DNA from: an uncultured Gammaproteobacteria bacterium
GTDB lineage: Bacteria > Pseudomonadota > Gammaproteobacteria > Steroidobacterales > MnTg04
DNA length: 64,000 nucleotides
Direction of reading: 5' to 3'
Assembly (NCBI GenBank): GCA_964568075.1
Contig: CAZMOM010000002.1
Location: forward strand, 32,398 to 96,397
Part shown: positions 4,072 to 35,768 of the stretch, piece after piece
How positions within the stretch are numbered: the first letter of the stretch is position 1
Layout of the letters: every line of letters starts with the position of its first letter
Translations under genes and position numbers: made by a program
The notes under the pieces: generated by a model
The model's input: only the letters and a program-made list of their open reading frames with translations
Database searches by the model: none
What the model was told of the DNA's origin: nothing

Positions 4072-4187
4072 TTCTGGCTCCGCCTTTGAACTGACGCGGA
4101 TATTAGCATGTGCCAGGAATACCGCCGGGAGTCGAAAATAGGCAAAAAGCTGCTTATACTTCATGCGACTTGGCCGTAAGGGACGCC

Positions 4188-6746: not shown

Positions 6747-6748
6747 TT

Positions 6749-7582: not shown

Positions 7583-7616
7583 GCCGGTTTTATTGAGGAA
7601 TGACTCGAGGGACATA

Positions 7617-20163: not shown

Positions 20164-21162
20164 TCAGGTTCGGTGATGCGGCAGTCCGACAAACGTGCCG
20201 CCGTTTTGCTCGCAAAGCAGGCGCATCAGTGTCGCGAATCGTATCGTGGTCGTCTGCAGGTGTGTTGGCAGCGTAAGAAGGGCCGGGAATCCGACCGCGT
20301 TGATCCGGACCAACCGCTTTCCATCGCGACCCTCCCGGTTAATCTGGCTTACTAAATTCAGAACCTGATCAATTGATCGGCCGGTAAATTCATCGCCAAA
20401 AACGTAGAGGCTGATTTTTTTGTCTGGCGAATAAAAAGTCTCTATGGCTTTGGTTATTCCTTCGACCGGACTGGAATTACTGAACGCGTTCCAGGTTTTG
20501 AGCCTGTCCATAATCGCTTTGCGCCGCCCGGGTGTATCGGGTATCCATTTTCCTGTGTAGCGGGTGAACATAAACTTACCCATATCGTTCATGACCTGGA
20601 TACCCTTGACCTTGGGATAAATTTCCAGCGTTTCCCGAAATTTCTCCAGCATCAGCGGCCAACTGTAGTTAATCATGCTCCCCGATGTATCGATGATGAA
20701 AATAATGTATTCGCTGTCGACGGGTATCCCGCCGATCAAATTGTCGTTTTCTGATTTCTGATAATCAGCCAGCAATCGCTTCATTTCGGACGTAAGCGAC
20801 TGGCGGGCGGCCGCCAGTTTTCCCTGGATGATATTGATCAACTCCGCGTCCTGACGGGAAGCGGCAAACTCGCCCTGAATTTTCGACATTTCCGCCTGCA
20901 GACGCGCCAGGCGTTGCCTGGCGACTGATAGCTGGTCTTCCCGGGAGATCATTTCCCGATTGAGAATACTGGTCTCGCCCCAGATCTCGTGCAAATCACG
21001 TTGCCGGTCCTCAAGCGCAGCCTGCAGATCGATGGCGGACTGCTCGATCACGACCGGCTCGAAAACCTTGGTCAGCACCAGCATCAGAATAACGGCGCCG
21101 AAACCACAGCAGATGACGTCAAGAAAGGACAGTGTGAGTCCTGTATCGCGCTTTCGCTTCAT
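20164..21162 (-). CDS. ExbD/TolR/MotB-like Asp-TM anchor, coiled coil and periplasmic vWA domain protein (paralogue 2)
   Basis: The N-terminus MKRKRDTGLTLSFLDVICCGFGAVILMLVL is a single TM with an embedded Asp (compare ExbD PFIDV, TolR PLLDV). A heptad-rich segment of about 100 aa follows. The vWA domain has MIDAS-like IIFIIDTSGSM and a later VFGDE. Confidence 0.7.
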   Translation of the reverse strand: MKRKRDTGLTLSFLDVICCGFGAVILMLVLTKVFEPVVIEQSAIDLQAALEDRQRDLHEIWGETSILNREMISREDQLSVARQRLARLQAEMSKIQGEFAASRQDAELINIIQGKLAAARQSLTSEMKRLLADYQKSENDNLIGGIPVDSEYIIFIIDTSGSMINYSWPLMLEKFRETLEIYPKVKGIQVMNDMGKFMFTRYTGKWIPDTPGRRKAIMDRLKTWNAFSNSSPVEGITKAIETFYSPDKKISLYVFGDEFTGRSIDQVLNLVSQINREGRDGKRLVRINAVGFPALLTLPTHLQTTTIRFATLMRLLCEQNGGTFVGLPHHRT

Positions 21163-21174
21163 GTCGCGCCTCCT

Positions 21175-22272
21175 CTACGGCCAGTCCCGGGAGGGGCTCA
21201 GAAAAGACCCCTTGGTGGCCATTGCCAGCTTCCAGTAATCGGACGATGCCGCCGGATCGCCTTCCATCGGAAACAGCACGATGTTGATGGGAATATTCAA
21301 AGGAAGATATCTCACCGCCCTGTCGAATAGTCTCTCTCTTTGTCGTCCTGTGACCGTTCCAGACGCCCTGATGTTCTCACCCTGGGTTGGTAAGCCATCG
21401 ACCAGCAAATAAACATTGTCCGGTTGGGGATGGAGCGATGTAATTACAGCAAACGCTGCGTGCAGGCTGGTGCCTTTCTCCGGGACCAGCCGCCGCAAAT
21501 TCTCGACCGCCCGGTTCAGGTCGCTGCCATCCCCCGCCTCCAGCCAGCGTCCAGCTGTGCCCTCCACCAACGGCGTTGCAGTCGTGTTAAACGCGTATAT
21601 CTGAAACTGGCTGGTTGGCGGAATCTGCGCGGTCAGCCAGTCAACCGTTTTAATCGCCCGTTGCCATTTCCTTGCCGCGAGCTTTTGCTCTGTCCGCATG
21701 TTCCGGCGTCGAATAACATTGACGATCGTTTCATCGAGCATGCTTGCCGACGCGTCAAGCAGAATCAATATGCGGTCGCCCCCCATCTGCATGCCCGTCA
21801 GATATTGCCTGTTTCCTTCGCCGATGAACGAACGCACGCTGTCTCCGCGCTGCTCGCCTTGTTCGACACCGCCTTCCAGTCTTCGGCGTTCCTCCTCGTT
21901 TGCCTGCAGGTCGGCTTTCAGTTTGTTGACGCTCTCTTTACTCGCCAACGTATCCTCATCCAGCCTCGCCAGTTCGACCCGGATTTTTTCCAGGTCCTGT
22001 GCGATCGAGTCGGCAAGACCATCGGTGACTGTTTCTTTCTCGTCCAGAATCGTGACGTTATTCCTGATTTGGACCAGGTATTCCTTACCTTCAAGAACCT
22101 GTTCTTCGAGCCGGGCAATTTCAGAAAGAAGATCGATGTTAGCTTCTTCTGTGCGCCGCTCTGTCGAATGATTGATAATCAGAAAAACAAGAATGACGGC
22201 GCCAAAACCACAGGACATACAATCCAGAAAAGACAAGTTAAAAACATTCATTTGTCGTTTTCTGAGAGCCAT
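21175..22272 (-). CDS. ExbD/TolR/MotB-like Asp-TM anchor, coiled coil and periplasmic vWA domain protein (paralogue 1)
   Basis: The TM segment NLSFLDCMSCGFGAVILVFLI is followed by a long coiled coil. The vWA domain carries ILILLDASASM, GTSLHAAF and YLLVDGLPTQG. ATG 22272 lies 1 nt after the upstream stop; an alternative TTG start is at 22284. Confidence 0.7.
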   Translation of the reverse strand: MALRKRQMNVFNLSFLDCMSCGFGAVILVFLIINHSTERRTEEANIDLLSEIARLEEQVLEGKEYLVQIRNNVTILDEKETVTDGLADSIAQDLEKIRVELARLDEDTLASKESVNKLKADLQANEEERRRLEGGVEQGEQRGDSVRSFIGEGNRQYLTGMQMGGDRILILLDASASMLDETIVNVIRRRNMRTEQKLAARKWQRAIKTVDWLTAQIPPTSQFQIYAFNTTATPLVEGTAGRWLEAGDGSDLNRAVENLRRLVPEKGTSLHAAFAVITSLHPQPDNVYLLVDGLPTQGENIRASGTVTGRQRERLFDRAVRYLPLNIPINIVLFPMEGDPAASSDYWKLAMATKGSFLSPSRDWP

Positions 22273-22273
22273 G

Positions 22274-23617
22274 TTAATCGCCAATACTGATCAGCTGAAC
22301 GGTCTCGCCCGGCGATCCCATGCGTATGACGTCGCCCAGCGCCAGTTCGGCGAACTCAGTGATCTTTCGCCCGTTGACGAACGTTCCATAACTCGAATGG
22401 TCTTCCACTGTCGTTCTTCCTTTCGCGCTTTTTACAGTACAGTGTTTCCGCGAAACGCCATCCAGCACACCGACCAGCTTTACGCCGCGCTCATTTTCGG
22501 GGGGGTCGATACCCAAAACCAGTGGGCCGTCGCTCAGAGAGTAGGCCCTGGCGCGGTAAAGCAAATGACTGGGCTTCGTATTCGACGACATCGCGATCCT
22601 GGCCGGGGACGATCCGCCGGACAACGGCAAACTGCTTAAAAAACCGACTTCGCCATTGCCCGGGCCGCTATTGCAAAGCCCTGGACGCGCAAGCACGCCG
22701 CGTGCCGCCGCGTTTTCATCCAGCCACCGCGATTCCAGCCCGTCTATCAAGCCCAGACTTTCTTTCAGGCCCGGAAATCCTGCCATTCGATGGCTAATCG
22801 CCATCAATCGGCCTTGCCGCGGTCGGACCTGCTGAACGATCTGCGGGTAAACAGCCGAACTTGCCGATAACAGATGATCGACGCCCAATTGCACCGTGTA
22901 GGTCTTGTCGTCTGCTTCAAGATCAATCGACGTGTTGCCACCGGATTCGACATCCGCCAGCCAGCTATCGAGCTTGTTAAACAGCTGTTGCTCCGTTGCC
23001 GCTTTGTGCAAGGGATCGAAGCGTGTCTGGCGGACGAATATATCTGCAACAATATTGGCCCAGTTTTCACGCAGCGCAGACAACCCCGTTTCACAGACGA
23101 CGAATACGCCGGCACGGGAAAGCTGGTCATCACTTTCCAACTCCGTCAATACGATTCGTTGTTGTTGAAGATCGAGATGCAGAGCGGGTAAATCAGGCTC
23201 GAGCGAAATGCCGGCTGCCACCGCCGCATCCACCATGCCCAGCACCGGGATATCCAGATCGGAAGCAATGCCCAGCATCAGCCCCATCTGTTCCTGATTC
23301 CAGGTTCCGGGTACCGCAACGATCAAGCCCGAATCGGGTTTGGCCAGTTGTTGCCAGATGTGCTCAAGATGGGCGTGAGCCAGATCGGCATTGGTTCGAA
23401 ATCGACCGGATGGATTCGACAACGGCTCCTGATTGAGTCCGCTCCAGAAACTGGTGTTTGTCCACAAGGGCTTCAGCCGTGATCTGTCGAACGCTTCCTG
23501 GCCAAGAAAAATATGCGGGCCATCCAGCACGGCACAGGCAGGGCTGCTAACGACTGTACGCTGGCCATCGCTGACCACGAGATCAACATCATTTATTTCC
23601 AGGACGAGATCAGACAA
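22274..23617 (-). CDS. Hsp70/actin-fold-like protein fused to a C-terminal FHA domain
   Basis: The central AVPGTWNQEQMGLMLGIASDLDIPVLGMVDAAVAAGI mirrors the Hsp70 motif ([32 protein letters not shown]). The N-terminal phosphate-1 region looks degenerate (LVLEINDVDLVV). The C-terminus has canonical FHA motifs (GVSRKHC...SSYGTFVNGRKI...GDVIRMG). Confidence 0.65.
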   Translation of the reverse strand: MSDLVLEINDVDLVVSDGQRTVVSSPACAVLDGPHIFLGQEAFDRSRLKPLWTNTSFWSGLNQEPLSNPSGRFRTNADLAHAHLEHIWQQLAKPDSGLIVAVPGTWNQEQMGLMLGIASDLDIPVLGMVDAAVAAGISLEPDLPALHLDLQQQRIVLTELESDDQLSRAGVFVVCETGLSALRENWANIVADIFVRQTRFDPLHKAATEQQLFNKLDSWLADVESGGNTSIDLEADDKTYTVQLGVDHLLSASSAVYPQIVQQVRPRQGRLMAISHRMAGFPGLKESLGLIDGLESRWLDENAAARGVLARPGLCNSGPGNGEVGFLSSLPLSGGSSPARIAMSSNTKPSHLLYRARAYSLSDGPLVLGIDPPENERGVKLVGVLDGVSRKHCTVKSAKGRTTVEDHSSYGTFVNGRKITEFAELALGDVIRMGSPGETVQLISIGD

Positions 23618-23631
23618 CGGCGTCTCCTGCT

Positions 23632-24429
23632 TTAGCGGACCTGTAAATGTCGAATCAGTTGTTCATCGACATAAGTTTGGGAATCCAGAACTAGCCCCTC
23701 TTGCGCCTCCTGCAACTGGTGCAACAAAAACATTACGATGATGCTGATGATCAGTGCGACAAATGTCGAATTGAAAGCGATACCGAGTGCCTGCGTGACC
23801 CCGGTAATGTCTCCGGCGACCGCTTCATTGGCACGGCCCAGGGCCTGACCGATCCCCCTTACCGTGCCGATAAATCCCACAGACGGTATCGCCCACGCCA
23901 GATAGCGCACCATGGACAGTTCGGTATCCATGCGTTCCGATTCCGTATCGCAAACCGCCTTGACCGCTGTGGATACATCCTGGATGCTCTTCGTCGCACG
24001 AAACCGGTGCAGGGCCGTCAACAGGGCTCGCGGTAACAACCGCCTTTGTTGCTCAATATTCATCGCCTGCAAGGGTCTCGCGTATTCCCGCGTGTCCTCC
24101 GGCAGCACGCTGGTTCCTTCACGGACGGAAATCAGTTTTTCCAACAGGAAACTGCGTTCGCGGTTCGTTACGATCGCCTTGTAACCCATCAGCGCGAACG
24201 CCCAGAGCATCAGGATAAAACAGGTTTCCTGTTCAAAGTCCCTGATAATGACGTAAAGGGATCGCTGTGGAACATAGTTTTCATCCTGCTCGAGCAGGAC
24301 AGCTCGTTCCAGAATTACGGCTTCAGCTCTTGGCCGGACCATCGAAACATAGATCGCGTGAACGATAATGACCGCAAGTATCAGGGAAAAGACCTGATAC
24401 AAAAATTCAACTGGATAGCGTCGCTGCAT
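23632..24429 (-). CDS. MotA/TolQ/ExbB family proton channel protein
   Basis: The 265-aa protein has N-terminal TM helices and a cytoplasmic insert. Its C-terminal signature is YLAWAIPSVGFIGTVRGIGQAL...GVTQALGIAFNSTFVALIISIIVMFLLHQL, which matches the MotA_ExbB core pattern. Confidence 0.8.
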   Translation of the reverse strand: MQRRYPVEFLYQVFSLILAVIIVHAIYVSMVRPRAEAVILERAVLLEQDENYVPQRSLYVIIRDFEQETCFILMLWAFALMGYKAIVTNRERSFLLEKLISVREGTSVLPEDTREYARPLQAMNIEQQRRLLPRALLTALHRFRATKSIQDVSTAVKAVCDTESERMDTELSMVRYLAWAIPSVGFIGTVRGIGQALGRANEAVAGDITGVTQALGIAFNSTFVALIISIIVMFLLHQLQEAQEGLVLDSQTYVDEQLIRHLQVR

Positions 24430-24447: not shown

Positions 24448-24729
24448 TCAGATATCGACCGGGTATGAGATAGACAGGTCACTGGACACCTTTTCGCTGG
24501 GCACAAAACTGTCCAGATCATCGATGGTTTGCGGCCGTTCCTCGCGTGGTTCTACGACCTGGGCTGCAGCGGCCATATCGTCGGCAGCAACCGCTGGCGC
24601 CGGATCGGCTACTCCCTGCTGCTCAGCGGTCCGGTCGGCGTCTTCTTCCTGAGCAACGAGGGGCCCGGAAAACCAAAAACAAATGGACAAGAGTATTCCC
24701 TGCGCTATGTTTCCTGCGTGCCTGATCAC
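24448..24729 (-). CDS. Small secreted acidic protein (signal peptide)
   Basis: The 93-aa protein has the signal MIRHAGNIAQGILLSICFWFSGPLVAQ followed by an E/D/A/P-rich region. Its placement within the operon is tight (14- and 18-nt gaps). I recognised no domain. Confidence 0.5.
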   Translation of the reverse strand: MIRHAGNIAQGILLSICFWFSGPLVAQEEDADRTAEQQGVADPAPAVAADDMAAAAQVVEPREERPQTIDDLDSFVPSEKVSSDLSISYPVDI

Positions 24730-24743
24730 ATCAGAACCTCCAC

Positions 24744-27245
24744 TTATTCAAGATACCGCGCCAGCCGAAAGCCCAGATCGTCACGCGGGTCCTTGGCGTA
24801 ATCGCGAAAACCGACCCTCAATTCGCTGACACCGCCGGATGTCCAGCTGGACCCGCGAACAACATAATACTCCCCACTGGCCGGGCCTAGCGGATCCGTA
24901 GTAAGTTTTCCGGCCCGCAGAGGGTCTGCCGAGTAATAGTCATGCACCCACTCCGCGACGTTGCCAGCCAAATCAAAAAACCCGGTATCGGTGGCGTCAA
25001 ATGAGCCCGTGGGGGAGGTGGCCGCATATTTATCGTCGTAGCCTTCGATAACCACTGACACCATCATGCGTGCCGAGTTATCTGCGAAATTTCCGGAGCC
25101 ACTGAGCGGAGGCAGATTTTCGCCCCATGGATAGCGATTTTTCACGCCCTGCCTCGTTTGTCGTTGCGCCATGGCCCATTCCGCCTCGGTCGGCAGTCGA
25201 TAACCGGTAGTCATCGGGCTGGCGCCGACCAGCAGGTCATTCTCCGCAACATAGGCTGGCGGCAATCCGTCTTTTTCACTTAACCAGTTACAATATCTCG
25301 CGGCATCCTGCCAACTGATCTGGACAACCGGATGAGTATTTTGGTTCAAACTCGTTTTCTTGACGGCGCCGGAATTATGCTCCCGGCTAAACTTGCGAAA
25401 CTCCGCATTACTGACTTCATGAGTCCCCAGATAAAAAGGCTTCTCCAGTACTACAGGATGCTCGATCTCATTCGAGCGTCGCCCCGGTTGGCGACGCGGC
25501 GTTCCCATATCGATGCGTCCACCTTTGATTAAATTCAGTTTCTGCCCGGCCGCAGTCTCGATCGTCTTCGGAATCGACTCCCAGCGAGCCTGTTCAAGCG
25601 TTTTCAGATGCGCCACAAGCTGTTGCTCAAAGCCGGGCCGCGGCGTTACCCGGGCATGAAACGGCGCAAATCCTGGTTTGGAAAACTCGATCAGATGTGG
25701 CTGCGCGGATAATTTGAGCTGAAGATTGGTTTCGCCGCGATTGACTCCGTCAACTTTCACCGTAGCACCGGCTGGTTCGCTTTTGACTGTGACGAGGCCG
25801 ACCAGCGCCTGCAGGTTAACCAACACGCTGGCGTCCTGATCGGAACGCACTCGCAGATTGCGCGTTGCATTTCGGTGGCCTGCCAATGAAAACGCCAATT
25901 GATATTCGCGGTCGGGCGCCAACGCGATGCTCAATGGTGTTCGGCCCCGGTACTGCCGGTTTACGGTCACGCTCGCCCCGGGCGGGTTACTGCGAACCGA
26001 TACTTTTCCGTCGGCCTTGAGCAGCGTCACGGGCAGAAGCTGATGATTTCCGGCAATGACATCGATATTTTCCTGCCAGGTCTTGAACCCTTTTCTGCTA
26101 ATTTTCAGCTGCCGGCTACCCTGTAGCAATTCAACCGTCAGCGGGGTACTGCCGATTTCCAGATCATCGACAAAAACCCGCGCAACGGACGGCACGGACG
26201 TGAGTTCATAATTTGCCCAGGCGGGCAACATCTCTATTGTCAGGCTCAGTTCGTGTCCTCCGCCTTCCACCTGGATTGTCTGTCGATGATCGAGATAACG
26301 ATCCGCGCGTAACAGCAACTCATGTTCGCCAGATTCAAGATCGATATCGGACAGGGGCGTTACGCCGAGATCCCTGTCGTCCACCCGAACCGAAGAAATA
26401 GCGACCGGCGTACTTTGAATGCGAAAGTAATCCGGTAGCCTGTTGAGCTGAAACAGTACCTCCTGATTGGCTGACCCATCGACCCGGAACGTTTCCCGGA
26501 GCGGATGATATCCCTGCTTTTGTGCCGAAACCCTGGCATCGCCCTGTAACAGCAGGTAACGGCCACCCAATTCAAAACTCAACCATGCGCCGTCAACGTC
26601 AAATTTATCCGGCATCGGTTCGATGACAACGCGCACGGCTGTAGCCGAAAACATAAATGCTGCCAATGCTGCAAGGATCAAAAACCCGGCCACAATCGCC
26701 ATGGGCAACGGACGAAAACGGTCTTTGCGATCGAGCCTTTGCGTGCTCCGCGAAAATGAGCCGGGAACAATTTTCTGCGCGGAGATTTCGGTCGCTGACG
26801 GTTTGGCAGTCACGCTGAGATCGCCTGGAGTATCTGGCGACGTCAGTACCCATGACTTGACGCCATCCGACTCCTCTTCGCCCGGTGGCAAAGTCGAATT
26901 GGTGTCACGGGCCTGAAGATAGAGAATGCCGCCACGCCCGTCGGAGGCGAAATTTAGAATCAGCGGCCCCGCTCGTACGCGGTCACCATTACTCAGCAGG
27001 ACGGAGTCATCGATTTTTCGGCCGTTGACGAAAACACCCGGCGACCCGGACTCGATCTTCAGGGTCACTTTGCCGGCGTCGACGACAAAACTCGCTACCG
27101 GCTGCTGAACGTTGGTTGGCAAACTGCTCACCGGCAAGATCTCGCCGGTTTTGTCCAGAACCAGATAAAGCTCCGACTGGCTCTGTTGCTTATCGCCCGC
27201 TGACCGGTTGGTGTCAGTATGATTGGTCAAATCTTTTCCTCGCAC
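24744..27245 (-). CDS. FHA-like, TM, PEGA repeats and FGE-sulfatase (SUMF1/EgtB/PvdO-type) domain protein
   Basis: The cytoplasmic N-terminus has an FHA-like core (GVFVNGRKIDDSVLLSNGDRVRAGPLIL). A TM (MAIVAGFLILAALAAFMF) follows, then about 5 PEGA-like repeats (for example ARVFVDDLEIGSTPLTVELLQGSRQLKISRKGF). The C-terminus has FGE-type motifs (HPVVQISWQDAARYCNWL, GYRLPTEAEWAMA, GNVAEWVHDYY, VVRGSSW). The start is GTG 27245 or the TTG overlapping the upstream TGA. Confidence 0.8.
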   Translation of the reverse strand: MRGKDLTNHTDTNRSAGDKQQSQSELYLVLDKTGEILPVSSLPTNVQQPVASFVVDAGKVTLKIESGSPGVFVNGRKIDDSVLLSNGDRVRAGPLILNFASDGRGGILYLQARDTNSTLPPGEEESDGVKSWVLTSPDTPGDLSVTAKPSATEISAQKIVPGSFSRSTQRLDRKDRFRPLPMAIVAGFLILAALAAFMFSATAVRVVIEPMPDKFDVDGAWLSFELGGRYLLLQGDARVSAQKQGYHPLRETFRVDGSANQEVLFQLNRLPDYFRIQSTPVAISSVRVDDRDLGVTPLSDIDLESGEHELLLRADRYLDHRQTIQVEGGGHELSLTIEMLPAWANYELTSVPSVARVFVDDLEIGSTPLTVELLQGSRQLKISRKGFKTWQENIDVIAGNHQLLPVTLLKADGKVSVRSNPPGASVTVNRQYRGRTPLSIALAPDREYQLAFSLAGHRNATRNLRVRSDQDASVLVNLQALVGLVTVKSEPAGATVKVDGVNRGETNLQLKLSAQPHLIEFSKPGFAPFHARVTPRPGFEQQLVAHLKTLEQARWESIPKTIETAAGQKLNLIKGGRIDMGTPRRQPGRRSNEIEHPVVLEKPFYLGTHEVSNAEFRKFSREHNSGAVKKTSLNQNTHPVVQISWQDAARYCNWLSEKDGLPPAYVAENDLLVGASPMTTGYRLPTEAEWAMAQRQTRQGVKNRYPWGENLPPLSGSGNFADNSARMMVSVVIEGYDDKYAATSPTGSFDATDTGFFDLAGNVAEWVHDYYSADPLRAGKLTTDPLGPASGEYYVVRGSSWTSGGVSELRVGFRDYAKDPRDDLGFRLARYLE

Positions 27246-29611
27246 CGTATCAATACGGGCTCAGGCGATTCGCCAGGCCTGATGACGATTTGCTTTCTGA
27301 CATCGCGATACCCGTCACGAGTACCGATCAGGGTATACCGGCCAGGCAAAAGCTCCAGCGAATGATTGTTAAATGAACCCAGCCTGCCGATCTGGTAAAC
27401 GAAAACTTCGGTCATCGTGTCAGAGACCAGATCTATTTTTACCGGTATTCGGGCGAGCTGGAGTTGCAATTGCAACTGAACCAGTTGGCTGCTCAGCCGC
27501 GGACCAGGATTCGGCAAAAGATGTACCTGCTCGAGAAAACCCAGCGCCGCCTGGTAAACACCGTCTTCAGCCAGGCGCTCTGGCTTTTCTGTGTATAAAA
27601 CGAACTCCTCGTCCACGCCGATCATTTTTTGCGCCAGCGTTACGCCCTCGCGGCCAAACACGAGGTTGGGATCAAGTTTCAGCGCCGACTGGTACGCCAG
27701 CAGTGCTCGCTCCCATCGTTCATTGGCCGCATGGCCGTCGGCCTGTATACGGTATCGGCTGATTTCATTCAGCTTCATGACCTCATCGACCTGGTGCAGA
27801 CCATCCTTGGCGTCGACCGAGCCGGGATTAAGTCTTAGCGCCACCTGAAACGATTTCTTTGCCTGCTCCAGCTTGTTTTGGGCCAGGTAGGAAAATCCGT
27901 CGGACATCGACCGACTGAAATTCTGCCTGGCCAGACTTTTCTCCAAATCGCCAAGTGCGTTTATTGCCGGCTGCCAGGCTGGATTCAGATTTAGCACCTT
28001 GCGATAGGCGTCGCGCGCGGCAGAAATCTGATCTTCGTGCAAAAGGGATTCCGCGTCTGTCATCAACTGAAGTACCTGGTCGAGATTCTGCGCCCGAGCC
28101 AACCCTTGCCGAGCCCTGTTACTGTTCGAATAGATTGCAACCGCCAATTCATACTGCTGTTGGGCGCCGGTCGAATTACCGTCCGCCAAAGCGCTATCTC
28201 CGGCATCCAGCGCCGCTTCGAACACCGGGTTCACACGGTCGGTCAGCGCGTCGCTTTTTTCCAGCGCCGAGACATAGCTGGCCAGCGCAGCCAAATAATT
28301 TCCTTCGCGAAATAATGAATCTCCCTCGCGGGCCTGCTCAACTGCCGCGATAAACTCCTCGGCGGCCCAGAGATTGACGGCTCGATCTTCCAGTGCAATT
28401 TGCCGCCTCAACAATTGCGCAACCAGGCGCTCCGCCTGCTCGCGATTGCGCGCCGCTTCGGCAGACTCATAAGGGGCCAGCCTGGTCGCCTCTTGCACAT
28501 CGGCCAAGTCAGCAGCGGTTGAATTTAAGCTTTCTGGCGGCAACCCGGATTCGGGAGATGCGGTCAGCGTCTGATCGGGTTTTCTTTTAGCGACCTGCTC
28601 CGGTAAATACAAAAAAACGGCAGCAGCCAACAACAACAGGACGGCCATGATCAACCCGGGTATCCACGGTCGCCTGTCCAATAGATCCTGATCGACCGTG
28701 CCAGAGAGATCAGCGCTCACCGGCGCCACTGCGTGACGACGGATTTGTGTGATTTTGTCTGGCTCACTGTTTCCGGCGGCCGGTTGTTCTCCCGGCGGCA
28801 GCGTGGCTGTGCTGCCAAGACCGGTGGCATCGGCAAGCGCATTGCGTACCGCAGCGACCGATGAGGGCCTTTCAGCCGGAATCTTGGCCAGCATGCTCAT
28901 GATCAACGTGGTAAGGCCCGCCGGAAGCGGGTAGTCCGTCTGCGGCGGAACGGGTACCTCGTTCCGTATCTTGTCGTGATCGATGCTGGGATGAAACGGC
29001 GGCTTGCCCGTGAGCAGCTCGTAGATCATGACCCCCAATGCGTAGATGTCGTCGGCGACTGCGGCAGGATCGCCGTCAAGTTGCTGCGGACTGATCGAAT
29101 AGGGCGAGCCGCCTCCTTCGATTCCAGCGGAATCCCCGCTGAGCCCGCCGATCCCGAAGTCGCTGAGTTTGACCGTTCCATCGAGCGCAATCAGCACATT
29201 TTTGAGTTTGAGATCGCGGTGAACCATGCCCGCCTTGTGGGCATATTCCACCGCTTCGAGGACCGGAAACAGCATCGGCAGCCAATCTTTGTAGTGACGG
29301 CCAGCCATGGCCTCGAGATCGTCGCCTTCCACATATTCCATTGAGAAAAAGTGGCTATCGTCACTGCTGAAGAAATCCAGGACGCGAGTGATATTTGGAT
29401 GTACGAGCTTGCGAATGAGACTGCATTCCTTGCGCAGCCTTTCGACCATGTCCGGGTTGGCGGCGAGGGCAGGCTTTAGAATCTTGACAGCGACCCGGCT
29501 CGAAAACTCCTTGTCCTCAGCAAGCCAGACGTCGCCCATCCCCCCATGCCCCAATGGAGCGATCAGTGAAAAACGGCCGGATAATATTTGTCCCTTGTGG
29601 TATTCCTGCAT
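27227..29611 (-). CDS. Serine/threonine protein kinase (Hanks), TM, periplasmic TPR repeats and C-terminal PEGA-like domain
   Basis: Kinase motifs are GHGGMGDVW, VAVKILK, HRDLKLKNVLI and LSDFGIG. The TM is PGLIMAVLLLLAAAVFLYL. At least 5 TPR-like repeats follow, and the C-terminus (LELLPGRYTLIGTRDGYRDVRKQIVIRPG) is PEGA-like. Confidence 0.85.
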   Translation of the reverse strand: MQEYHKGQILSGRFSLIAPLGHGGMGDVWLAEDKEFSSRVAVKILKPALAANPDMVERLRKECSLIRKLVHPNITRVLDFFSSDDSHFFSMEYVEGDDLEAMAGRHYKDWLPMLFPVLEAVEYAHKAGMVHRDLKLKNVLIALDGTVKLSDFGIGGLSGDSAGIEGGGSPYSISPQQLDGDPAAVADDIYALGVMIYELLTGKPPFHPSIDHDKIRNEVPVPPQTDYPLPAGLTTLIMSMLAKIPAERPSSVAAVRNALADATGLGSTATLPPGEQPAAGNSEPDKITQIRRHAVAPVSADLSGTVDQDLLDRRPWIPGLIMAVLLLLAAAVFLYLPEQVAKRKPDQTLTASPESGLPPESLNSTAADLADVQEATRLAPYESAEAARNREQAERLVAQLLRRQIALEDRAVNLWAAEEFIAAVEQAREGDSLFREGNYLAALASYVSALEKSDALTDRVNPVFEAALDAGDSALADGNSTGAQQQYELAVAIYSNSNRARQGLARAQNLDQVLQLMTDAESLLHEDQISAARDAYRKVLNLNPAWQPAINALGDLEKSLARQNFSRSMSDGFSYLAQNKLEQAKKSFQVALRLNPGSVDAKDGLHQVDEVMKLNEISRYRIQADGHAANERWERALLAYQSALKLDPNLVFGREGVTLAQKMIGVDEEFVLYTEKPERLAEDGVYQAALGFLEQVHLLPNPGPRLSSQLVQLQLQLQLARIPVKIDLVSDTMTEVFVYQIGRLGSFNNHSLELLPGRYTLIGTRDGYRDVRKQIVIRPGESPEPVLIRCEEKI

Positions 29612-29626: not shown

Positions 29627-30865
29627 TTATGGCCGGGCGCCATCCGGTTTCGGGACCCCACCCTGTTCGTCCACAATAAAACCGGTTTCCGCAGCGTAAA
29701 TTTCCCGCAGAATATCCCGCCACTCATCGAATTGCGCATCGACGGTACCGGTCAGCTCCACAGTCTGGCCCTCCACATCAACCACCAACGGTGCGACCTG
29801 GGCTTCCATGGATTCGCTCAACTCCTTGATCGCCTCGAAATGGAGCTTCGATTCTTTCGATTTATCCAGGCCGCTCTTAATTGCTGTTATGCCACCGATT
29901 ATGGCGCCGGTCGAGGCGAGCTGGCCTGCCTGGGTATGGGATTTCTGACTGGCTGCGATTCCGCCGATCACCATCAGCCCGCCCGCGAGCAACCGGTTTC
30001 TGGCGGATGCCTTAAGTTCTCTAAGCGCCTGCGCCTCTTCGAAGGTATATTTCCGCCACTCCGAATACGGCTGATCCATTTGCCGATACAGCCCCGCGTA
30101 ATACTCATCCAGCGTATCGACATACATATATTCACGTTGGCGGATACGCAACATCCTGCCGACCATCGGGTCGTCGGTCGATGGCAAACGTCGTACCCGG
30201 TATTTACCTCTTCGGTTTTCCAGGTAATCGCCAAATACTTCCGGTGACAGATCGCCGGCAAATCGCAATTCTGCAACCCGCCGCACGTTCGTCAACTGAT
30301 CTTCAGTCATTTTTTGACGTACCGCCAGCAAATCATTGGCGATGGCATGATATAAATCCTGGAACGGGTCGCCACGCGACGGAATATATTCCTTATAGGC
30401 GTACTTACTCGCCTTATCCTGATATCTTTTTTTCAGCCATTGCTGCCCCGTCGCATCAACTGCCTCAATTTCGAGTTTTAGTATCTCTCCATCTGACGAA
30501 ATAATTTCGCCAAATACGATCAAGTCCATGCCGGCCGTCACTTTTGGCAGAACACGAACAGCGCCCCAATTCCCGGTGTCCTCAAGAACGCGCTTCACCT
30601 GATACGCCATGTACCGGGCTTCGGCCTTGCGAACCTCAGGGAAAATGTTTCGACTGTCTTCCTCGGTCGCCTGCTCGTCCAGATTAGACTCCAGACCAGG
30701 ATCGAAGATCACGATACCGACATCCAGCACGGTCGAATCCTGTATCTCCGCTCCCGCCTTGATCAGTCGGGTTGGATTAGCCTTAATTATATTCTGCTGC
30801 ACACAACCGCTGACCAAAAGTACGATCAGTAACACGATCCCTGTGTAAAATTTTGTGTTCTGCAT
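29627..30865 (-). CDS. Lipoprotein with C-terminal glycine-zipper segments
   Basis: The signal plus lipobox is MQNTKFYTGIVLLIVLLVSGC. Gly-zipper-like segments LLAGGLMVIGGIAAS and GAIIGGITAIKSG occur near residue 300. The start overlaps the upstream stop (TAATG). Confidence 0.6.
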   Translation of the reverse strand: MQNTKFYTGIVLLIVLLVSGCVQQNIIKANPTRLIKAGAEIQDSTVLDVGIVIFDPGLESNLDEQATEEDSRNIFPEVRKAEARYMAYQVKRVLEDTGNWGAVRVLPKVTAGMDLIVFGEIISSDGEILKLEIEAVDATGQQWLKKRYQDKASKYAYKEYIPSRGDPFQDLYHAIANDLLAVRQKMTEDQLTNVRRVAELRFAGDLSPEVFGDYLENRRGKYRVRRLPSTDDPMVGRMLRIRQREYMYVDTLDEYYAGLYRQMDQPYSEWRKYTFEEAQALRELKASARNRLLAGGLMVIGGIAASQKSHTQAGQLASTGAIIGGITAIKSGLDKSKESKLHFEAIKELSESMEAQVAPLVVDVEGQTVELTGTVDAQFDEWRDILREIYAAETGFIVDEQGGVPKPDGARP

Positions 30866-32574
30866 TATTGTCCAGTCGCTTTCTTGTACGCCCGGTATTC
30901 GTCCCAGAGTTTATCTCTAAGAACCGGGTCAAGTTCGTTTTCCGCCGCCTCACGCAGCTGTCTCGCGACGATGTCATCATCGCTCCCATCAGGAATATCT
31001 TCCGGTGGCGGGCTGGGCTGGGCATTGCCGCCCTCTTTCCGGATCAATGAGGATTTATCCTGCCCGTTGCTCGCTTCACCCGCGGTTTGCCCCGCCTGCG
31101 CAATCAGGAGATCGTCTTCGCCCGCAATCGTGTCGCCATCGTCGGAACCGAATCCCCGGTCGTTTCCTTCGTCGCCAAACTCACCGCCACCGATAGCAAT
31201 TCCAATTTTTGAACCCCGACCGGCCAGTAACACACCGTCAAGAGTCGCCAGGGAACCGGACAATTGCGCATCCAGAACCACCACCCGGTCCGCTGACGTT
31301 CGCGCGCCGGGAATAACCAATATGACTCCGCTGCCACTAGAAGAACCGTCATCAAGGCCCGGCATTCCCGGCAGACCGAGTCCACCCGGCAGCATGATTC
31401 CACCCGGCAAGAGTATGCTTCCGGGAACGGTTGTGAGGTCACCGGCGAGAACCATCCTGACGCCTGCATTCTGTCCGTTTGCCTGGTCAGCGTCGGTGTC
31501 CACTGAGCGCATCCCCTCGTTTATTGCATTCATGACCTGCGCCAGACCTTGTAATGCGGCAAGCCTGACCTGCAATTCTTCTCCCGGTGAACCTTCACTC
31601 GACTCATCGGCGTCGGAACCCTGCTGCGGTTTCGAACCGCTTTCTAATTCTGCCGTTTCACCGCTTTGCGTTTTGGCTGCGCCGCTGGCCAAAGCCGCGC
31701 TGGCTTTTTCGACTTCCGCCGCAACCTCGACCAAAGCTTCGCCGACCGCTATCCTCAGTGCCTCCTGGTATTCCGGGCTGCCCATGTCCGGCAGGTCCCC
31801 TGCCCGATTGTCCGCATCAGCATCGGCTGATCGGACCGAATTCATTTGCGACTCTGCAACCGCGTCGATCAAGTCCTGAAGCGTCTGCCGCGCCCGCGCC
31901 ATGGCCTGGTCAGCGCTCTGCAGATCGGCCGCGGACGCAGCATCGGTCTGCTTTGCCGACTGGCCACCGGCGTTCCCGCTACTGCTGTCGGCTACCTGAG
32001 TCTCGTCGCTGGAGACAGAATCGCCCTGGGCACTCTCCGTCTTTTCCTGGTCATTCTGCTGGTCGGCGTCGGCGACCGCCTGGTCGGCTGCCTTCTGCTC
32101 GTCTTCGTCGTCTTCCTCCTCGTTCGAACTGGCCGCCGCCTCCGACTCGCTTAATTCCGGTTCTTGCTGCTCATCGGTAGCCTCGGCAACGGCTTCGGCC
32201 GCTTCATCCAGCGCCTCATTGGCAGCTTGTATCGCCTCGTCCGCAGCCTGCATGGCCTCGTCTCCGGACGCTGATTCAGATTCGTCGCTGCTGCTGTCGG
32301 CCGCGGCACTGCTCGCCGCTGCTGACGAGCTGCTTTGCTGACTGTATTCGGGACTGGAGGACGCGCTGCTCGATGAACTCTCCTGGCTTTGCGTCTGCAA
32401 CTCGGCCATGCTCTGACTCGCCGACGAAGTCTGCGTCTGGCTTTGACTTTGTGACTGCGACTGGCTTTGCGAAGACGATTCGGATTGCTGCTGCGGTGGC
32501 GTCACACAGCCGGCGATCAGGAAAACGCAAACAACCGGTATCCATCTGTGAATTCTGATATTTGTAGTCATCAT
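30865..32574 (-). CDS. Hyper-acidic, low-complexity (S/Q/E/D/A-rich) lipoprotein
   Basis: The likely start at 32574 gives MMTTNIRIHRWIPVVCVFLIAGC, which contains a lipobox. It is followed by SQSQSQSQSQSQTQT and long S/A/E/D tracts (EEDDEDEQ). The C-terminus is an ordered-looking helix, DDDIVARQLREAAENELDPVLRDKLWDEYRAYKK. Confidence 0.6.
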   Translation of the reverse strand: MMTTNIRIHRWIPVVCVFLIAGCVTPPQQQSESSSQSQSQSQSQSQTQTSSASQSMAELQTQSQESSSSSASSSPEYSQQSSSSAAASSAAADSSSDESESASGDEAMQAADEAIQAANEALDEAAEAVAEATDEQQEPELSESEAAASSNEEEDDEDEQKAADQAVADADQQNDQEKTESAQGDSVSSDETQVADSSSGNAGGQSAKQTDAASAADLQSADQAMARARQTLQDLIDAVAESQMNSVRSADADADNRAGDLPDMGSPEYQEALRIAVGEALVEVAAEVEKASAALASGAAKTQSGETAELESGSKPQQGSDADESSEGSPGEELQVRLAALQGLAQVMNAINEGMRSVDTDADQANGQNAGVRMVLAGDLTTVPGSILLPGGIMLPGGLGLPGMPGLDDGSSSGSGVILVIPGARTSADRVVVLDAQLSGSLATLDGVLLAGRGSKIGIAIGGGEFGDEGNDRGFGSDDGDTIAGEDDLLIAQAGQTAGEASNGQDKSSLIRKEGGNAQPSPPPEDIPDGSDDDIVARQLREAAENELDPVLRDKLWDEYRAYKKATGQ

Positions 32575-32803
32575 GAAACCTGCCTTTGGCTTTTTTTGGT
32601 GAGCCAGATCGAGCGAACCTACCGCAATTAATCGCGGTCCAAGGATACTCGCCCGCTCCTCGTGGTCACAACCATTCATTCGTGGCTGTTTTGGGGCACT
32701 CCCTTGATTAGACTGGCAATCCGGTTAAAGTTCTGCTATCCGGGGCGGAACTATTATCGCTCCTACCGCTCGTAACTGAACAGATACTGGAAGAAACGTA
32801 TTG

Positions 32804-33514
32804 ATGCATAACAACTCCGGGCCGTCGAGAAGTTTCGCTTATAACTATATGTTTTTTAAACATATTTATTTTTCCTCGTTTTTTCGGTGCGTCTTTCTGG
32901 CGATCGCCGGCACCTGCCTTGCCGGCTGCGTAAACATAATTAGCGCCGTGGGTAGCTTTCCTGTGCCGCCTGGCGAAAAAATGCCGTTGACCATCGCCCT
33001 GTATTTCGCCGAAGAATTCAGAAATTATGCGCCTGTCGAAGATCTATACCAAAAAAACGACTGGCAGGTAAATCTGGGAATAGCGAGTACCCAAATGTTT
33101 AGCCAGGTATTTAGCAACATCAGCCGCGACACCGTTATCCTGGATAAAAAGCCAGGCAGTGATTCTCAGGTCGCGGCGGATCTCATCGTCGTCCCGTCAA
33201 TAACCGATTTCGGACTGCTCGACCCGGCGGTGACTCCACTCGACTTTTTTTCCATGTCCTTCAAGTACAGGGTTGATATATTCACACCCGATGGGGCGTT
33301 GCTGGACGAATGGACTTTCAACGCTTATGGCAAGACAGCGTCCCGCGTATTTGGCGATAAGGAGTCAGTCAGACAAGCGCTGTTAATTGCCCTGCGCGAT
33401 GCTGCCGCTTCTCTGACACTCGATTTTTCGCGCCAGCCCGGGGTAAGGGGATTGCTCATGAAAACGAAATCGAAAACCATTGCCGAGGCAAATCAGGATG
33501 TCGCAAACAATTAA
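32804..33514 (+). CDS. Lipoprotein, unknown function
   Basis: The signal FFRCVFLAIAGTCLAGC contains a lipobox. The gene is divergent from the nine-gene operon. The start is uncertain (TTG 32801, ATG 32804 or ATG 32849). Confidence 0.5.
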   Translation: MHNNSGPSRSFAYNYMFFKHIYFSSFFRCVFLAIAGTCLAGCVNIISAVGSFPVPPGEKMPLTIALYFAEEFRNYAPVEDLYQKNDWQVNLGIASTQMFSQVFSNISRDTVILDKKPGSDSQVAADLIVVPSITDFGLLDPAVTPLDFFSMSFKYRVDIFTPDGALLDEWTFNAYGKTASRVFGDKESVRQALLIALRDAAASLTLDFSRQPGVRGLLMKTKSKTIAEANQDVANN

Positions 33515-34211
33515 ATATCCGAAAAACAGTTCCGCAGTAAGAATCCGGCTGGGGGCGGCACTGTTGCTTTTCGCGGTCGCGCTCGGCGGTTGCGTCAACT
33601 CGCAAGTCGAGGAATTTCGCCACCTGTCTGGCACGCAGCCCATCGAAGCTATTCAGGAATACGAATCAGTCGTCGTTTTAACGCGAAGGACCCATACGGG
33701 AAAAGAAACAGAGGAATCTTTTACCAATTGTGTGTCCGATAAATTAAAATCCGGTAAACGGTCGTTGCGGGTAACTGATCAAGCTCGTTTTGTCGATCTG
33801 ATGTTTCCGTATTTCGAACCGAGGCTTGCTCCGAACAACCTCTACGAATTGCCAACTTTACTGGCTCGACCGGGTGTCCTGGATCGAATGAACGATATCG
33901 GTGTTCGATATATGATCTGGATCGATGGAAGTACGCAGAGCCTGGACCAGGGCGGTACGATGACCTGCGCATTGAGTCCTGCCGGCGCCGGGTGCCTGGG
34001 CTTCACCTGGCGGGAAAAAGAGTCCAGTTACGAAGCATCCATCTGGGATCTGAAAACCCAGGAAATCAAAGGCACGATCAGTGCCGATGCCAAAGGCACG
34101 TCCTTTATGCCCGCGCTGATCATTCCCATCCCAATGATAGCTCGAACTGCGAAGGCCGCCTGCAACGGCCTGGCAAGCCAGATTCATGCCTTTCTGACGG
34201 AGCAGGGATAG
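33498..34211 (+). CDS. Lipoprotein, unknown function
   Basis: MSQTIKYPKNSSAVRIRLGAALLLFAVALGGC contains a lipobox. The gene overlaps the end of the previous gene. I recognised no domain. Confidence 0.5.
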   Translation: MSQTIKYPKNSSAVRIRLGAALLLFAVALGGCVNSQVEEFRHLSGTQPIEAIQEYESVVVLTRRTHTGKETEESFTNCVSDKLKSGKRSLRVTDQARFVDLMFPYFEPRLAPNNLYELPTLLARPGVLDRMNDIGVRYMIWIDGSTQSLDQGGTMTCALSPAGAGCLGFTWREKESSYEASIWDLKTQEIKGTISADAKGTSFMPALIIPIPMIARTAKAACNGLASQIHAFLTEQG

Positions 34212-34223
34212 GTCGCCGGATAA

Positions 34224-35768
34224 TCAGTTTACCGGGGAAACGGTGTCGGAAAATTCTTCCCGGAACAGTTCCGGCGTTGCGACCGGCTTCCCATCGATAA
34301 ATCGAGGCCGATAAATAGAGCGACGAACCTCTTTTCTGAACTGCGTGAGCATCGAGGCCGGCGCAGTCGACTGAGTGACTTCCACATTATCGACATGACC
34401 GTTGGACATGACCACAAAAGACGCCTCCGCGAACGTGCCGTCGTATTTGGTATATCGCCCTGCTGCATTGATCCTTGGCCTGGGCTTTATATACCGCAGT
34501 CGTTTTGGCCGGCCAAAAAACAGGTCGGCTAACTCAAGCGAATTGGTTTCCGCCTCAATGATTTCCAGGGCTTTCTGATAGGTCTCGATGCCCAGGTCCG
34601 TTTTTCCTATCTTCAAGTACAGATCACCCAGTCGGATATGAACCCTCATCCTTTCGGCCGCTGTGACCGTATCCTCGTGCATGTCAACGATCCGTAAGGC
34701 TCGCATGAGCGCTTCCAAAGCCTGATTCGTCGTTGCGCCCTGCACTCTGTCCGGTCCAATCCGTCGATTCGCAGTCTGTCTTGAGATAAAGGCCGGATCA
34801 ATTCTGGGATCGTAAAACCCCGTGGCTGATAAGGTCGCCGCTTCGTTCATGCGTCGTTGTCGAACTTCGCGTACCTGTTGTTCAAATTGTCGAACCGACG
34901 CCACCCCAAGCAAAAGATCGATAAGCGCGATATCGTTTTCGCCCAGACTGTTTTCGGTGACGTGTATGGCTGCAAAGTAAAGGTTCTTGGCGTCGTCAAG
35001 CATGCGGACGCTGGCCTTGAACCTGGCCAGCCTGACCATCGAAGGAACCGCCAATACCGAATTCCTGCCATAACGATGGATATCGACATTATTTAGAAGC
35101 TCTTGTGCTTTGTTCGCACTATCCAGATCGCGCCCTGCCAGGTGGCTGACCGTCATCAGTTCCAACGCTGCAGCTTGGTCGGGGCTATACACGCCATCGT
35201 GGCGATGGCTGATATGCTGGGAGCGAAAAAACAAGTTTATGGCTTCGTCGTGATTACCGGCATTTTGCAAAGTCCTGCCCCAGCCGTTAATCACTTCGAC
35301 CAGACGGGCATCATAAATTCCGCCGTCTCTTTCAATCAGGTCGGTCGCGCGTCGGTAGTTCCCGAGTGCCTCCGCCTCATTACCAGTTAGCGCCTGGATT
35401 GACGCCAGGTTGGCTATTGGCCTGATCAGTGCCGGGTCGAAAGGATTCTCGGGATCGCCAGCCCGTTCAATCCCCATCCGGGCCAGCGCCAAAGCATCCG
35501 GGTGACGCTTCGCCAACAACATTTTCTGCGACTCTTCGATCAGCTGATCGCTGGCCAGATCACCCGGAATAATCAGTGGCGCCGGTTCCGTGTCAGTCTC
35601 GCCCGATGCCGGAAAATCGTCCGTTGATGACTGAACCAATGAAAGGTCATCGGCTCCCGTTGCGGCATTTTCAGAAGGATCGGCGGTCCGCCCCGTCTCA
35701 GGCAGATTTTGCGCAAACACAGCCAGCGGGGAAAAAAGAACAGCCAGAAAAAATAAATTGCGCGGCAT
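34224..35768 (-). CDS. Secreted TPR-repeat protein with TonB C-terminal-like domain (no TM anchor)
   Basis: The cleavable-looking signal is MPRNLFFLAVLFSPLAVFAQ. Multiple TPR-like helical repeats follow. The C-terminus (GTFAEASFVVMSNGHVDNVEVTQSTAPASMLTQFRKEVRRSIYRPRFIDGKPV) fits the TonB_C pattern. Confidence 0.65.
   Translation of the reverse strand: MPRNLFFLAVLFSPLAVFAQNLPETGRTADPSENAATGADDLSLVQSSTDDFPASGETDTEPAPLIIPGDLASDQLIEESQKMLLAKRHPDALALARMGIERAGDPENPFDPALIRPIANLASIQALTGNEAEALGNYRRATDLIERDGGIYDARLVEVINGWGRTLQNAGNHDEAINLFFRSQHISHRHDGVYSPDQAAALELMTVSHLAGRDLDSANKAQELLNNVDIHRYGRNSVLAVPSMVRLARFKASVRMLDDAKNLYFAAIHVTENSLGENDIALIDLLLGVASVRQFEQQVREVRQRRMNEAATLSATGFYDPRIDPAFISRQTANRRIGPDRVQGATTNQALEALMRALRIVDMHEDTVTAAERMRVHIRLGDLYLKIGKTDLGIETYQKALEIIEAETNSLELADLFFGRPKRLRYIKPRPRINAAGRYTKYDGTFAEASFVVMSNGHVDNVEVTQSTAPASMLTQFRKEVRRSIYRPRFIDGKPVATPELFREEFSDTVSPVN

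Follow-up and report, generated by a model that had tools for sequence, protein, structure and literature searches.

How should two adjacent genes be read that combine a Hanks-type Ser/Thr kinase, TPR repeats, PEGA repeats and an FGE-sulfatase-like domain, a vocabulary known from the threonine phosphorylation pathway of type VI secretion systems (T6SS), when no T6SS lies beside them? The question is raised by a stretch of 64,000 nucleotides of contig CAZMOM010000002.1 from an uncultured gammaproteobacterium of the Steroidobacterales (hereafter the window). The two genes are the following:

24744..27245, minus strand: FHA-PEGA-FGE protein, 833-aa open reading frame (ORF), predicted bitopic inner-membrane protein, fourth gene of its operon
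27227..29611, minus strand: kinase-TPR protein, 794 aa, predicted bitopic inner-membrane protein, third gene of the same operon

Our analysis indicates, with moderate confidence, that the pair are integral subunits of a conserved trans-envelope TolQ-like/TPH-vWA system, to which a threonine-phosphorylation switch was added in one clade. Threonine phosphorylation controlling an envelope machine is our best reading of the locus.

Conservation of the gene cluster

An alignment of the PEGA-FGE protein was scanned against one genome per species, which gave about 45 loci with a full-length homologue. Stop-to-stop ORFs were called at these loci and searched with the window proteins split into domains. 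The kinase-TPR and PEGA-FGE genes are adjacent in about 45 species-level genomes, and the loci have a common gene order: a gene like g604, the lipoprotein gene g412, the TPR gene (with or without a kinase domain), the PEGA-FGE gene (with or without an FHA module), a small ORF, a TolQ-like gene, an Hsp70-like/FHA gene, and two vWA genes, vWA-A and vWA-B. Two small lipoproteins, a TPR protein and an M48 peptidase often accompany the cluster. Among the hosts are Pseudomonadales, Cellvibrionales, Porticoccaceae, Steroidobacteraceae, Woeseiaceae, Methylophaga, Nitrosomonadaceae and an Opitutales metagenome-assembled genome (MAG), and Microbulbifer harenosus carries the same cluster. The sequence-only reading had taken the two proteins for a free-standing sensor pair. 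This does not hold, as both are conserved structural members of the TolQ-like/TPH-vWA cluster and mostly occur without the kinase domain and the FHA extension.

Several loci depart from the common order. Loci L041-L050 (Methylophaga, Nitrosomonadaceae, Poriferihabitaceae and others) are devoid of the Hsp70-like/FHA gene, the TolQ-like gene being followed directly by vWA-A. In two Candidatus Foliamicus chromosomes (L017 and L021), g412, the kinase-TPR gene and the FHA-PEGA-FGE gene stand by themselves, the next 10 kb downstream being free of motor genes, and in L022 the same triad is split from the motor genes by about 4.7 kb of other DNA. Since the triad stands alone in Foliamicus and is split off in L022, it behaves as a separable module. 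A kinase-bearing cluster of proteobacterial type was also found on a 10-kb contig labelled Nostoc favosum (L028, NZ_JAIVFQ010000159.1); it groups with Steroidobacteraceae in the tree, and is therefore probably a contaminant contig in a cyanobacterial assembly.

Co-variation of the kinase and FHA modules

The TPR protein bears a kinase domain in 11 loci (the window, L007, L011, L017, L021, L022, L028, L029, L034, L038 and L039). Kinase-less orthologues measure about 500-560 aa and consist of a short cytoplasmic tail, a transmembrane helix, and the same TPR region and beta-sandwich. Because they keep the transmembrane helix and the periplasmic part, the kinase is an add-on to a structural protein.

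The presence of the kinase domain is matched by that of two FHA modules. An FHA-like extension of about 120 residues is found on the PEGA-FGE protein in all 11 kinase loci, against 2 of the 33 kinase-less ones (11/0/2/31; Fisher p = 1e-8). Apart from these two, L009 and L012, the kinase-less loci encode PEGA-FGE proteins whose cytoplasmic tail measures about 50 residues. The Hsp70-like protein has a canonical FHA domain in 7/7 kinase loci, these seven being the ones with the gene on the contig, compared with 2/24 kinase-less loci (7/0/2/22; p = 1.4e-5). All seven show the signature G-x-SRxHC ... D-x-S-x-x-G-T-x-x-N, while in 22 of the 24 kinase-less loci the FHA positions are eroded and the length of the domain is retained. 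In a neighbour-joining tree of the PEGA-FGE core, every locus with a kinase domain falls within one clade.

A lineage sister to the window shows the modules in decay. The OM182 clade MAG CAJJAA010000040.1 (L024) encodes a 780-aa pseudokinase orthologue (L024:7436-9775), in which the G-loop and the VAIK Lys are lost, HRD has become HGF and DFG has become RGF. The PEGA-FGE protein of this locus is without the extension, and the FHA motifs of its Hsp70-like protein are eroded.

Architecture of the kinase-TPR protein

The kinase domain matches Pkinase in Pfam at residues 17-255 (6e-41; DNA 28847-29563), with TPR repeats C-terminal to it, and the Hanks motifs GHGGMG, VAVK, HRDLKLKN and DFG are all intact as read from the sequence. 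Among the kinase-domain orthologues the catalytic motifs are kept in 10 (three with HGD) and lost in L024; in those other than L024 a family-specific SPQQL replaces APE. By these motifs the kinase domain is intact and predicted to be active. A single transmembrane helix at about residues 314-336 (DNA 28604-28672) places the kinase domain in the cytoplasm and the TPR region (about residues 400-690) in the periplasm.

The sequence-only reading had given this protein periplasmic TPR and PEGA domains. The TPR part stands. The C-terminus (residues 706-794; DNA 27230-27496) is a PEGA/transthyretin-like beta-sandwich with support at the family level, although the window protein itself stays below threshold in Pfam (PEGA 12.9 bits against a cutoff of 20.8; CarboxypepD_reg E 0.049). 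Compared by hhalign with the first PEGA repeat of the PEGA-FGE family, the 32-member alignment of the C-terminal domain gave 89% probability and E 2e-6, and the orthologue C-termini matched CarboxypepD_reg in 17/32 and PEGA in 9/32. "PEGA-like beta-sandwich" seems a fair description of this region. No vWA match was obtained in Pfam for the ectodomain of the window protein.

Architecture of the FHA-PEGA-FGE protein and the gene overlap

Residues of this protein are numbered in the 833-aa ORF. In Pfam it matches PEGA (PF08308, 163.7 bits) and FGE-sulfatase (PF03781, 2.3e-43) at residues 572-830 (DNA 24756-25532), so that the FGE-like C-terminal domain proposed from the letters was recovered on profile search. 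The AlphaFold2 (AF2) model (pLDDT 82) shows five beta-sandwich modules between one transmembrane helix and the FGE-like domain, with the helix at residues 175-195 in the model (about 176-200 in the sequence) and the five PEGA modules at about 202-546. The proposed arrangement, an FGE-like domain tethered to the membrane behind five PEGA modules, agrees with both the Pfam match and the model.

A cytoplasmic FHA-like module had also been proposed for this protein. Its fold is supported: a profile of 14 orthologous N-termini matches solved FHA domains (Rv1747 at 1.6e-5, Ki-67, and the non-canonical EssC), and the AF2 model has a confident N-terminal beta-sandwich at residues 16-105. The Pfam match is borderline, however (20.0-21.1 bits against a cutoff of 20.7), and the canonical residues are missing, neither G-R nor S-x-x-H being conserved. 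The domain, at about residues 21-110 (DNA 26916-27185), is thus non-canonical, and by analogy with EssC it may be a phospho-independent interaction module. It is followed by a Ser/Thr/Pro-rich linker with Thr118 within S-T-L-P-P (DNA 26892-26894). A Thr in the context x-T-x-(P/A)-(P/S) directly follows the FHA-like domain in 12 of the 14 extensions; it is missing from L009 and L012, the only two of the 14 whose clusters are without a kinase. From this pattern we infer that the linker Thr may accept the phosphate and serve as docking site for an FHA domain.

The kinase and PEGA-FGE genes do overlap, as had been noted, but the span of 27227-27245 given for the overlap assumed the longest ORF, with a GTG start. 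The public gene model is of 828 aa and begins 5 codons downstream of the ORF start, at a TTG at 27230, which has a GAGGAA Shine-Dalgarno sequence 5 nt upstream, inside the kinase gene. This TTG is likely to be the true start, and the overlap between kinase stop and PEGA-FGE start is then probably 4 nt (TTGA), not 19 nt. Whichever the length, it suggests that the two genes are translationally coupled. A promoter and terminator scan gave background-level signal only.

The FGE-like domain as a binding module

In human FGE, C336 and C341 are the catalytic, Cu(I)-binding cysteines. In a HMMER alignment the human segment GGSYMC(336)HRSYC(341) is paired with GSSWTSGGVSE of the window protein, which puts Ser and Glu at the C336 and C341 positions. 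None of 30 relatives has a Cys at either catalytic column (0/30), the first being occupied by His/Ser/Gln/Met/Leu and the second by Glu/Pro/Asp/Ala. The check on the Cys pair that had been proposed to separate an enzyme from a binding module therefore has a clear result: with the pair absent in 30/30, the sequence makes the periplasmic FGE-like domain a non-catalytic, lectin-fold binding or scaffold module.

The fold itself is that of the catalytic enzyme (SUMF1/FGE), with a Pfam E-value of 2e-43 and TM-scores of 0.65-0.75, whereas the Cys336/Cys341 pair is replaced by Ser/Glu here and by His/Ser/Gln and Glu across the family. Foldseek matched the domain to FGE, to the variable protein TvpA of a diversity-generating retroelement and to PvdO at E ~1e-12, with TM-scores of 0.61-0.75 and 25% identity; human and bacterial FGE gave E 1e-12 and TMt 0.61-0.68, and PvdO a TM-score of 0.75. 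PvdO and TvpA are non-catalytic relatives of FGE, and the domain described here groups functionally with such binding-type proteins of the FGE fold. The NCBIfam models GldK, PvdO, SenA, EgtB and OvoA give partial matches far under their cutoffs (PvdO 60 bits against 500). General statements on FGS domains as binding modules can be found in PMC7159879.

The operon and its predicted motor

The two genes lie in a tightly packed minus-strand operon of nine genes running from 32679 to 20164, in which the kinase-TPR gene is the third and the PEGA-FGE gene the fourth. The other members are:

30865..32679, minus strand: g604, first gene; acidic, Ser/Gln/Glu-rich low-complexity putative lipoprotein with SQSQSQ-type runs
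29627..30865, minus strand: g412, conserved outer-membrane-type lipoprotein (LVSGC), a marker of the system
24448..24729, minus strand: g93, small secreted protein of 93 aa with a signal peptide and a variable acidic spacer
23632..24429, minus strand: TolQ/ExbB/MotA-like protein with three transmembrane helices (PF01618 3.4e-14; NCBIfam TolQ 2.8e-5)
22274..23617, minus strand: f447, cytoplasmic protein of 447 aa with an Hsp70 nucleotide-binding domain (NBD)/actin-like part (about 1-330) and a C-terminal FHA domain (about 350-447; DNA 22277-22570)
21175..22284, minus strand: vWA-A, with a short cytoplasmic tail, ExbD/TolR-like helix, periplasmic coiled coil and vWA domain; the database start is 22251
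20164..21162, minus strand: vWA-B, a paralogue of vWA-A with an SFLDVIxCGFGA helix, coiled coil and vWA-like domain with IDTSGSM

The TolQ/ExbB-like gene is conserved in 45 loci, and its product is presumed from its sequence to be the pentameric stator and proton-channel subunit. No ExbD/TolR/MotB match was found in the operon with Pfam or NCBIfam. The trans-pore helix of vWA-A reads FSLSFLDxMxCGFGAV and has an invariant Asp; in both vWA families, with 43 sequences for vWA-A and 42 for vWA-B, 90% or more of the members conserve the FLD motif. The vWA-A protein has a VWA_2 match at 4e-5, below the Pfam cutoff, and a conserved metal ion-dependent adhesion site (MIDAS) motif DxSxS, and vWA-B, which has no Pfam match but likewise a DxSxS motif, cross-matches vWA-A at 23-46 bits in every locus. 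The family profile of f447 matches Hsp70 NBDs (3.7e-5 and many more) as well as FHA domains, and the FHA domain of the window protein (Pfam 3.2e-11) contains SRKH and S-x-G-T-F-V-N-G. In the alignment of this family, canonical FHA motifs are confined to the kinase clade.

The small protein g93 ends in an invariant C-terminal motif, F-x-PSE-x-(I/V)S-x-D-x-x-(V/I)-x-(F/Y)PVDI-COOH, the C-terminal peptide in the window being ...PSEKVSSDLSISYPVDI. An ORF with this type of C-terminus lies between the PEGA-FGE and TolQ-like genes in nearly all loci, and SFPVDI is retained even in the most distant clusters. The protein may be a ligand, either of the vWA MIDAS sites or of the FGE-like domain.

Among the uncharacterized proteins of the system, the lipoprotein g412 is the best conserved, with homologs in 42 loci (140-400 bits). 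At 90% identity the family falls into more than 3043 clusters; at 50% there are 1343 representatives, 427 of them with E<=1e-30. The named matches among those listed carry the label "hypothetical protein" or "outer membrane lipoprotein SlyB", none of them with a Pfam domain, and g412 itself has no match in Pfam or NCBIfam. Its AF2 model (pLDDT 76) has an alpha/beta domain at the N-terminus, together with a helical hairpin of some length and a Gly-zipper segment. A weak Foldseek match of this model to TolB-N/LptE (E 5e-4, TM-score 0.22) is a hint and not an assignment. The g604 protein has a lipobox, LIAGC, at ORF residues 55-59, no Pfam match, and a C-terminal 200 aa weakly conserved in about 30 loci. 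Its true start is probably Met36/37; some uncertainty remains because the database model starts at 32253, downstream of the lipobox.

Likeness to known machines

The closest relative of the motor part is the TPH-vWA family, described in silico in 2025 (PMC12204202, Mol Biol Evol): tolQ homologues without tolR/exbD, tightly linked to a heterologous pair of membrane-tethered vWA proteins, in Proteobacteria and Verrucomicrobia. The vWA proteins of that family have a TolR/ExbD-like trans-pore helix with a conserved Asp, predicted to lie inside the pentamer. Here too a TolQ/ExbB-like gene is present with no tolR/exbD/motB adjacent, next to a heterologous vWA pair tethered by a transmembrane helix with a proton-binding Asp. 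That work is limited to the tolQ-like and vWA genes, and nowhere in it is there mention of kinase, FGE or PEGA (PMC12204202), whereas in our loci this core is embedded in a conserved cluster of 9-13 genes, with a kinase/FHA layer in one clade. A full-text literature search found no paper linking PEGA, FGE-sulfatase, FHA, kinase and TolQ elements.

In the T6SS, TagR is FGE-like and the ectodomain of PpkA is a vWA domain. The components of its threonine phosphorylation pathway are TagQRST-PpkA-Fha1-PppA (PMC10482370), and TagR belongs to COG1262 (PMC13584744). TagR acts with the lipoprotein TagQ and the ABC transporter TagST. The domain vocabulary that had been likened to this pathway was found in full: the Hanks kinase, the FHA modules, the FGE-like domain in the periplasm, and the vWA domains on proteins associated with the stator. 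What is alike is that the Hanks kinase is bitopic and has its ectodomain in the periplasm, that its periplasmic partner is FGE-like (COG1262) and that there are FHA proteins in the cytoplasm. The differences are that the kinase ectodomain here is TPR plus PEGA-like and not vWA as in PpkA, that the FGE-like protein is anchored in the membrane behind five PEGA modules and has its own FHA-like domain whereas TagR is soluble and periplasmic, that the FHA domain is fused C-terminally to an Hsp70-like domain and is not of the TagH type (f447 scores 18.8 bits against the model TIGR03354, with a cutoff of 120.25), and that the vWA domains are on motor subunits. Pfam searches covering every window ORF of 150 aa or more found no T6SS component, in agreement with the absence of T6SS genes reported before, and no TagQ, TagST, ABC transporter or PP2C of the PppA kind in the cluster. 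The comparison with the T6SS is only an analogy of logic and vocabulary; beyond generic domains, the defining features of the pathway were not found.

A link with the gliding proteins GldJ/GldK had also been suggested. It is tenable at the superfamily level and no closer, as the match to GldK reaches 93 bits where the cutoff is 350, and PorK gives E 1e-7 in Foldseek with the FGE-like domain, far weaker than the ~1e-12 of FGE, TvpA and PvdO. Orthology of the FGE protein with PorK/GldK was rejected on the score against TIGR03525 (93.2 bits, cutoff 350), on topology and on gene context. PorK/GldK is a lipoprotein, while the FGE protein here is bitopic with an N-terminal cytoplasmic domain and a transmembrane helix; homologs of PorL, PorM, PorN and Sov are absent, no GldL/M/N-like genes were detected in the operon with Pfam, and the hosts are Gammaproteobacteria. 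In architecture, the type IX secretion system (T9SS) may offer an intriguing parallel through PorLM-PorKN, with a non-catalytic periplasmic protein of the FGE fold (PorK/GldK, with PorN and PorLM) beside a motor of the MotA/ExbB superfamily, and a 5:2 motor, PorL/M (GldL/M), whose partner subunits have long periplasmic arms.

A possible threonine-phosphorylation gate and its alternatives

From the domains, topology, synteny, co-variation and Cys-pair loss described above, we infer a possible order of events, from the choice of kinase substrate through docking to the output. The TolQ-like pentamer and a vWA-A/vWA-B heterodimer would form a 5:2 motor driven by the proton motive force, with vWA heads reaching into the periplasm, as proposed in PMC12204202. 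The vWA pair would take the role of ExbD/TolR by inserting its Asp-bearing helix into the channel. The PEGA-FGE and TPR proteins, encoded side by side throughout, would be periplasmic scaffold or binding subunits anchored in the inner membrane. Their periplasmic parts might co-assemble by way of the PEGA modules common to both, as had been suggested from the letters. In one clade a kinase is carried by the TPR protein, an FHA-like domain and a Thr-x-Pro-Pro linker by the FGE protein, and a canonical FHA by the Hsp70-like protein. In such loci the assembly state in the periplasm could control the kinase, the trigger being contacts among TPR, PEGA and FGE domains or the binding of a ligand. The kinase may then autophosphorylate and/or modify the Thr in the linker of the FGE protein, whose gene is translationally coupled to its own. 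The Hsp70-like protein would dock on that phosphothreonine through its FHA domain, and docking would gate the assembly or the activity of the motor complex.

This reading defines a set of partners for the TolQ-like/vWA motor family, first predicted in 2025, namely the PEGA-FGE, TPR and Hsp70-like/FHA proteins, the small secreted protein and the lipoproteins. It also describes a eukaryote-like kinase/FHA layer grafted onto structural subunits in one clade and decaying as a unit, and the locus supplies candidates for the phospho-Thr and for its reader, with the pseudokinase as a natural control. If true, it would give a second example, besides the T6SS, of threonine phosphorylation gating a bacterial envelope machine, the phospho-gate logic having been acquired independently on a new class of machine. 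More tentatively, and with less than even confidence, the whole cluster of 9-13 genes may be a new trans-envelope nanomachine, composed of the motor (a TolQ-like pentamer driven by the proton motive force, with two vWA-headed subunits as rotor or arms), a PEGA-FGE scaffold with its TPR partner in the inner membrane, a secreted peptide ligand ending in FPVDI and outer-membrane lipoproteins, with the Thr-phosphorylation gate in one clade. Its architecture would be analogous to that of T9SS PorLM-PorKN or of Tol-Pal.

Several observations weigh against a phosphorylation gate. Since the kinase loci form one clade, the co-variation reflects few independent events (one gain or retention and about three to four losses), and the Fisher tests, which are uncorrected for phylogeny, overstate significance. 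Loci L009 and L013 keep a canonical-looking FHA domain without a kinase in the cluster, so FHA readers can work with kinases encoded elsewhere, such as the CHASE2 kinase 17 kb away in the window. The FHA domain of f447 in the window is without the Arg of the canonical G-R pair, and with neither G-R nor S-x-x-H conserved in the FHA-like domain of the PEGA-FGE protein, reading of phosphothreonine by that domain may be impossible. No PP2C was found in the operon, or within +/-10 kb at any related locus.

In one alternative, the kinase would regulate envelope stress in general and merely happen to be fused to a structural TPR protein; its substrates would lie outside the cluster, and the cluster's FHA modules would read phosphorylation by other kinases. 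The FHA domains kept without a cluster kinase in L009 and L013, the second kinase/PP2C/FHA operon of the window (4110-8378) and the lack of a phosphatase in the clusters speak in its favour. We nevertheless consider it unlikely, for the kinase, the FGE extension and the canonical f447 FHA are tightly coupled in presence and in decay, the pseudokinase lineage L024 included, the conserved linker Thr is confined to loci of the kinase clade, and the kinase and FGE genes are translationally coupled. A kinase that senses the substrate or product of a periplasmic FGE-, PvdO- or EgtB-like oxidase is far less probable. The FGE-sulfatase match at 2e-43, the partial matches to PvdO, SenA, EgtB and OvoA and the TM-score of 0.75 to PvdO recommend an enzyme, yet both Cu-binding catalytic Cys are missing in 30/30 relatives, every NCBIfam enzyme match lies far below its cutoff (60 bits against 500 for PvdO), the DinB-type domain that EgtB, OvoA and SenA require is absent, and the cluster has no sulfatase or biosynthetic genes.

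The remaining two alternatives concern known systems. An orphan T6SS module of the PpkA/TagR type, displaced from a T6SS that it regulates elsewhere in the genome, would share the membrane Hanks kinase, the FHA proteins and the FGE-like (COG1262) periplasmic domain. It is largely refuted by the conserved synteny, as in about 45 genomes the pair has the TolQ-like/vWA cluster beside it and never T6SS genes, and we regard it as extremely improbable given also the TPR and beta-sandwich ectodomain in place of vWA, the score of f447 against TagH (18.8 bits, cutoff 120), the lack of PP2C, TagQ and TagST in every cluster, the existence of orthologues of both proteins without kinase and FHA modules, and a 64-kb window free of T6SS genes. 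An anti-phage defence system using a Hanks kinase was suggested by PADLOC matches of the kinase domain to PD-T4-6, mad6 and MkoA (1e-33 to 1e-58). These matches span only the generic kinase domain, and the other cluster proteins match only marginally (ZorA E 0.0012, LmuB E 0.0089), for which reasons the defence reading was rejected, with next to no chance left to it; moreover, the cluster lies in the core chromosome beside rnr, rlmB, dnaB, hflKC and purA, is conserved vertically across families, and is without the kinase in most of its versions.

Genes around the operon

Some of the genes upstream of the operon are linked to the cluster in other genomes as well:

32801..34211, plus strand: p237 and p243, two small lipoproteins, divergent here, which accompany the cluster in about 24 loci
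34224..35768, minus strand: secreted TPR protein of 514 aa with TPR matches, cluster-linked in several loci
36129..37652, plus strand: M48 metallopeptidase lipoprotein (PF01435 7.5e-36), cluster-linked in about 11 loci

The flanking genes have core housekeeping functions (heptosyltransferase, rnr, rlmB, dnaB, hflX/K/C, purA, mutL and miaA). The window also harbors a separate Ser/Thr signalling operon of the classical type (4110-8378, plus strand), which could cross-talk with the FHA modules of the cluster:

4110-6746, plus strand: CHASE2-Hanks kinase, 878 aa
6722-7582, plus strand: PP2C phosphatase, the sole PP2C in the window
7593-8378, plus strand: canonical FHA protein (FHA 5.8e-22)

Another envelope protein is encoded near the cluster at 38872-41091 (minus strand), a 739-aa patatin-like phospholipase with an Omp85-type domain (PlpD-like).

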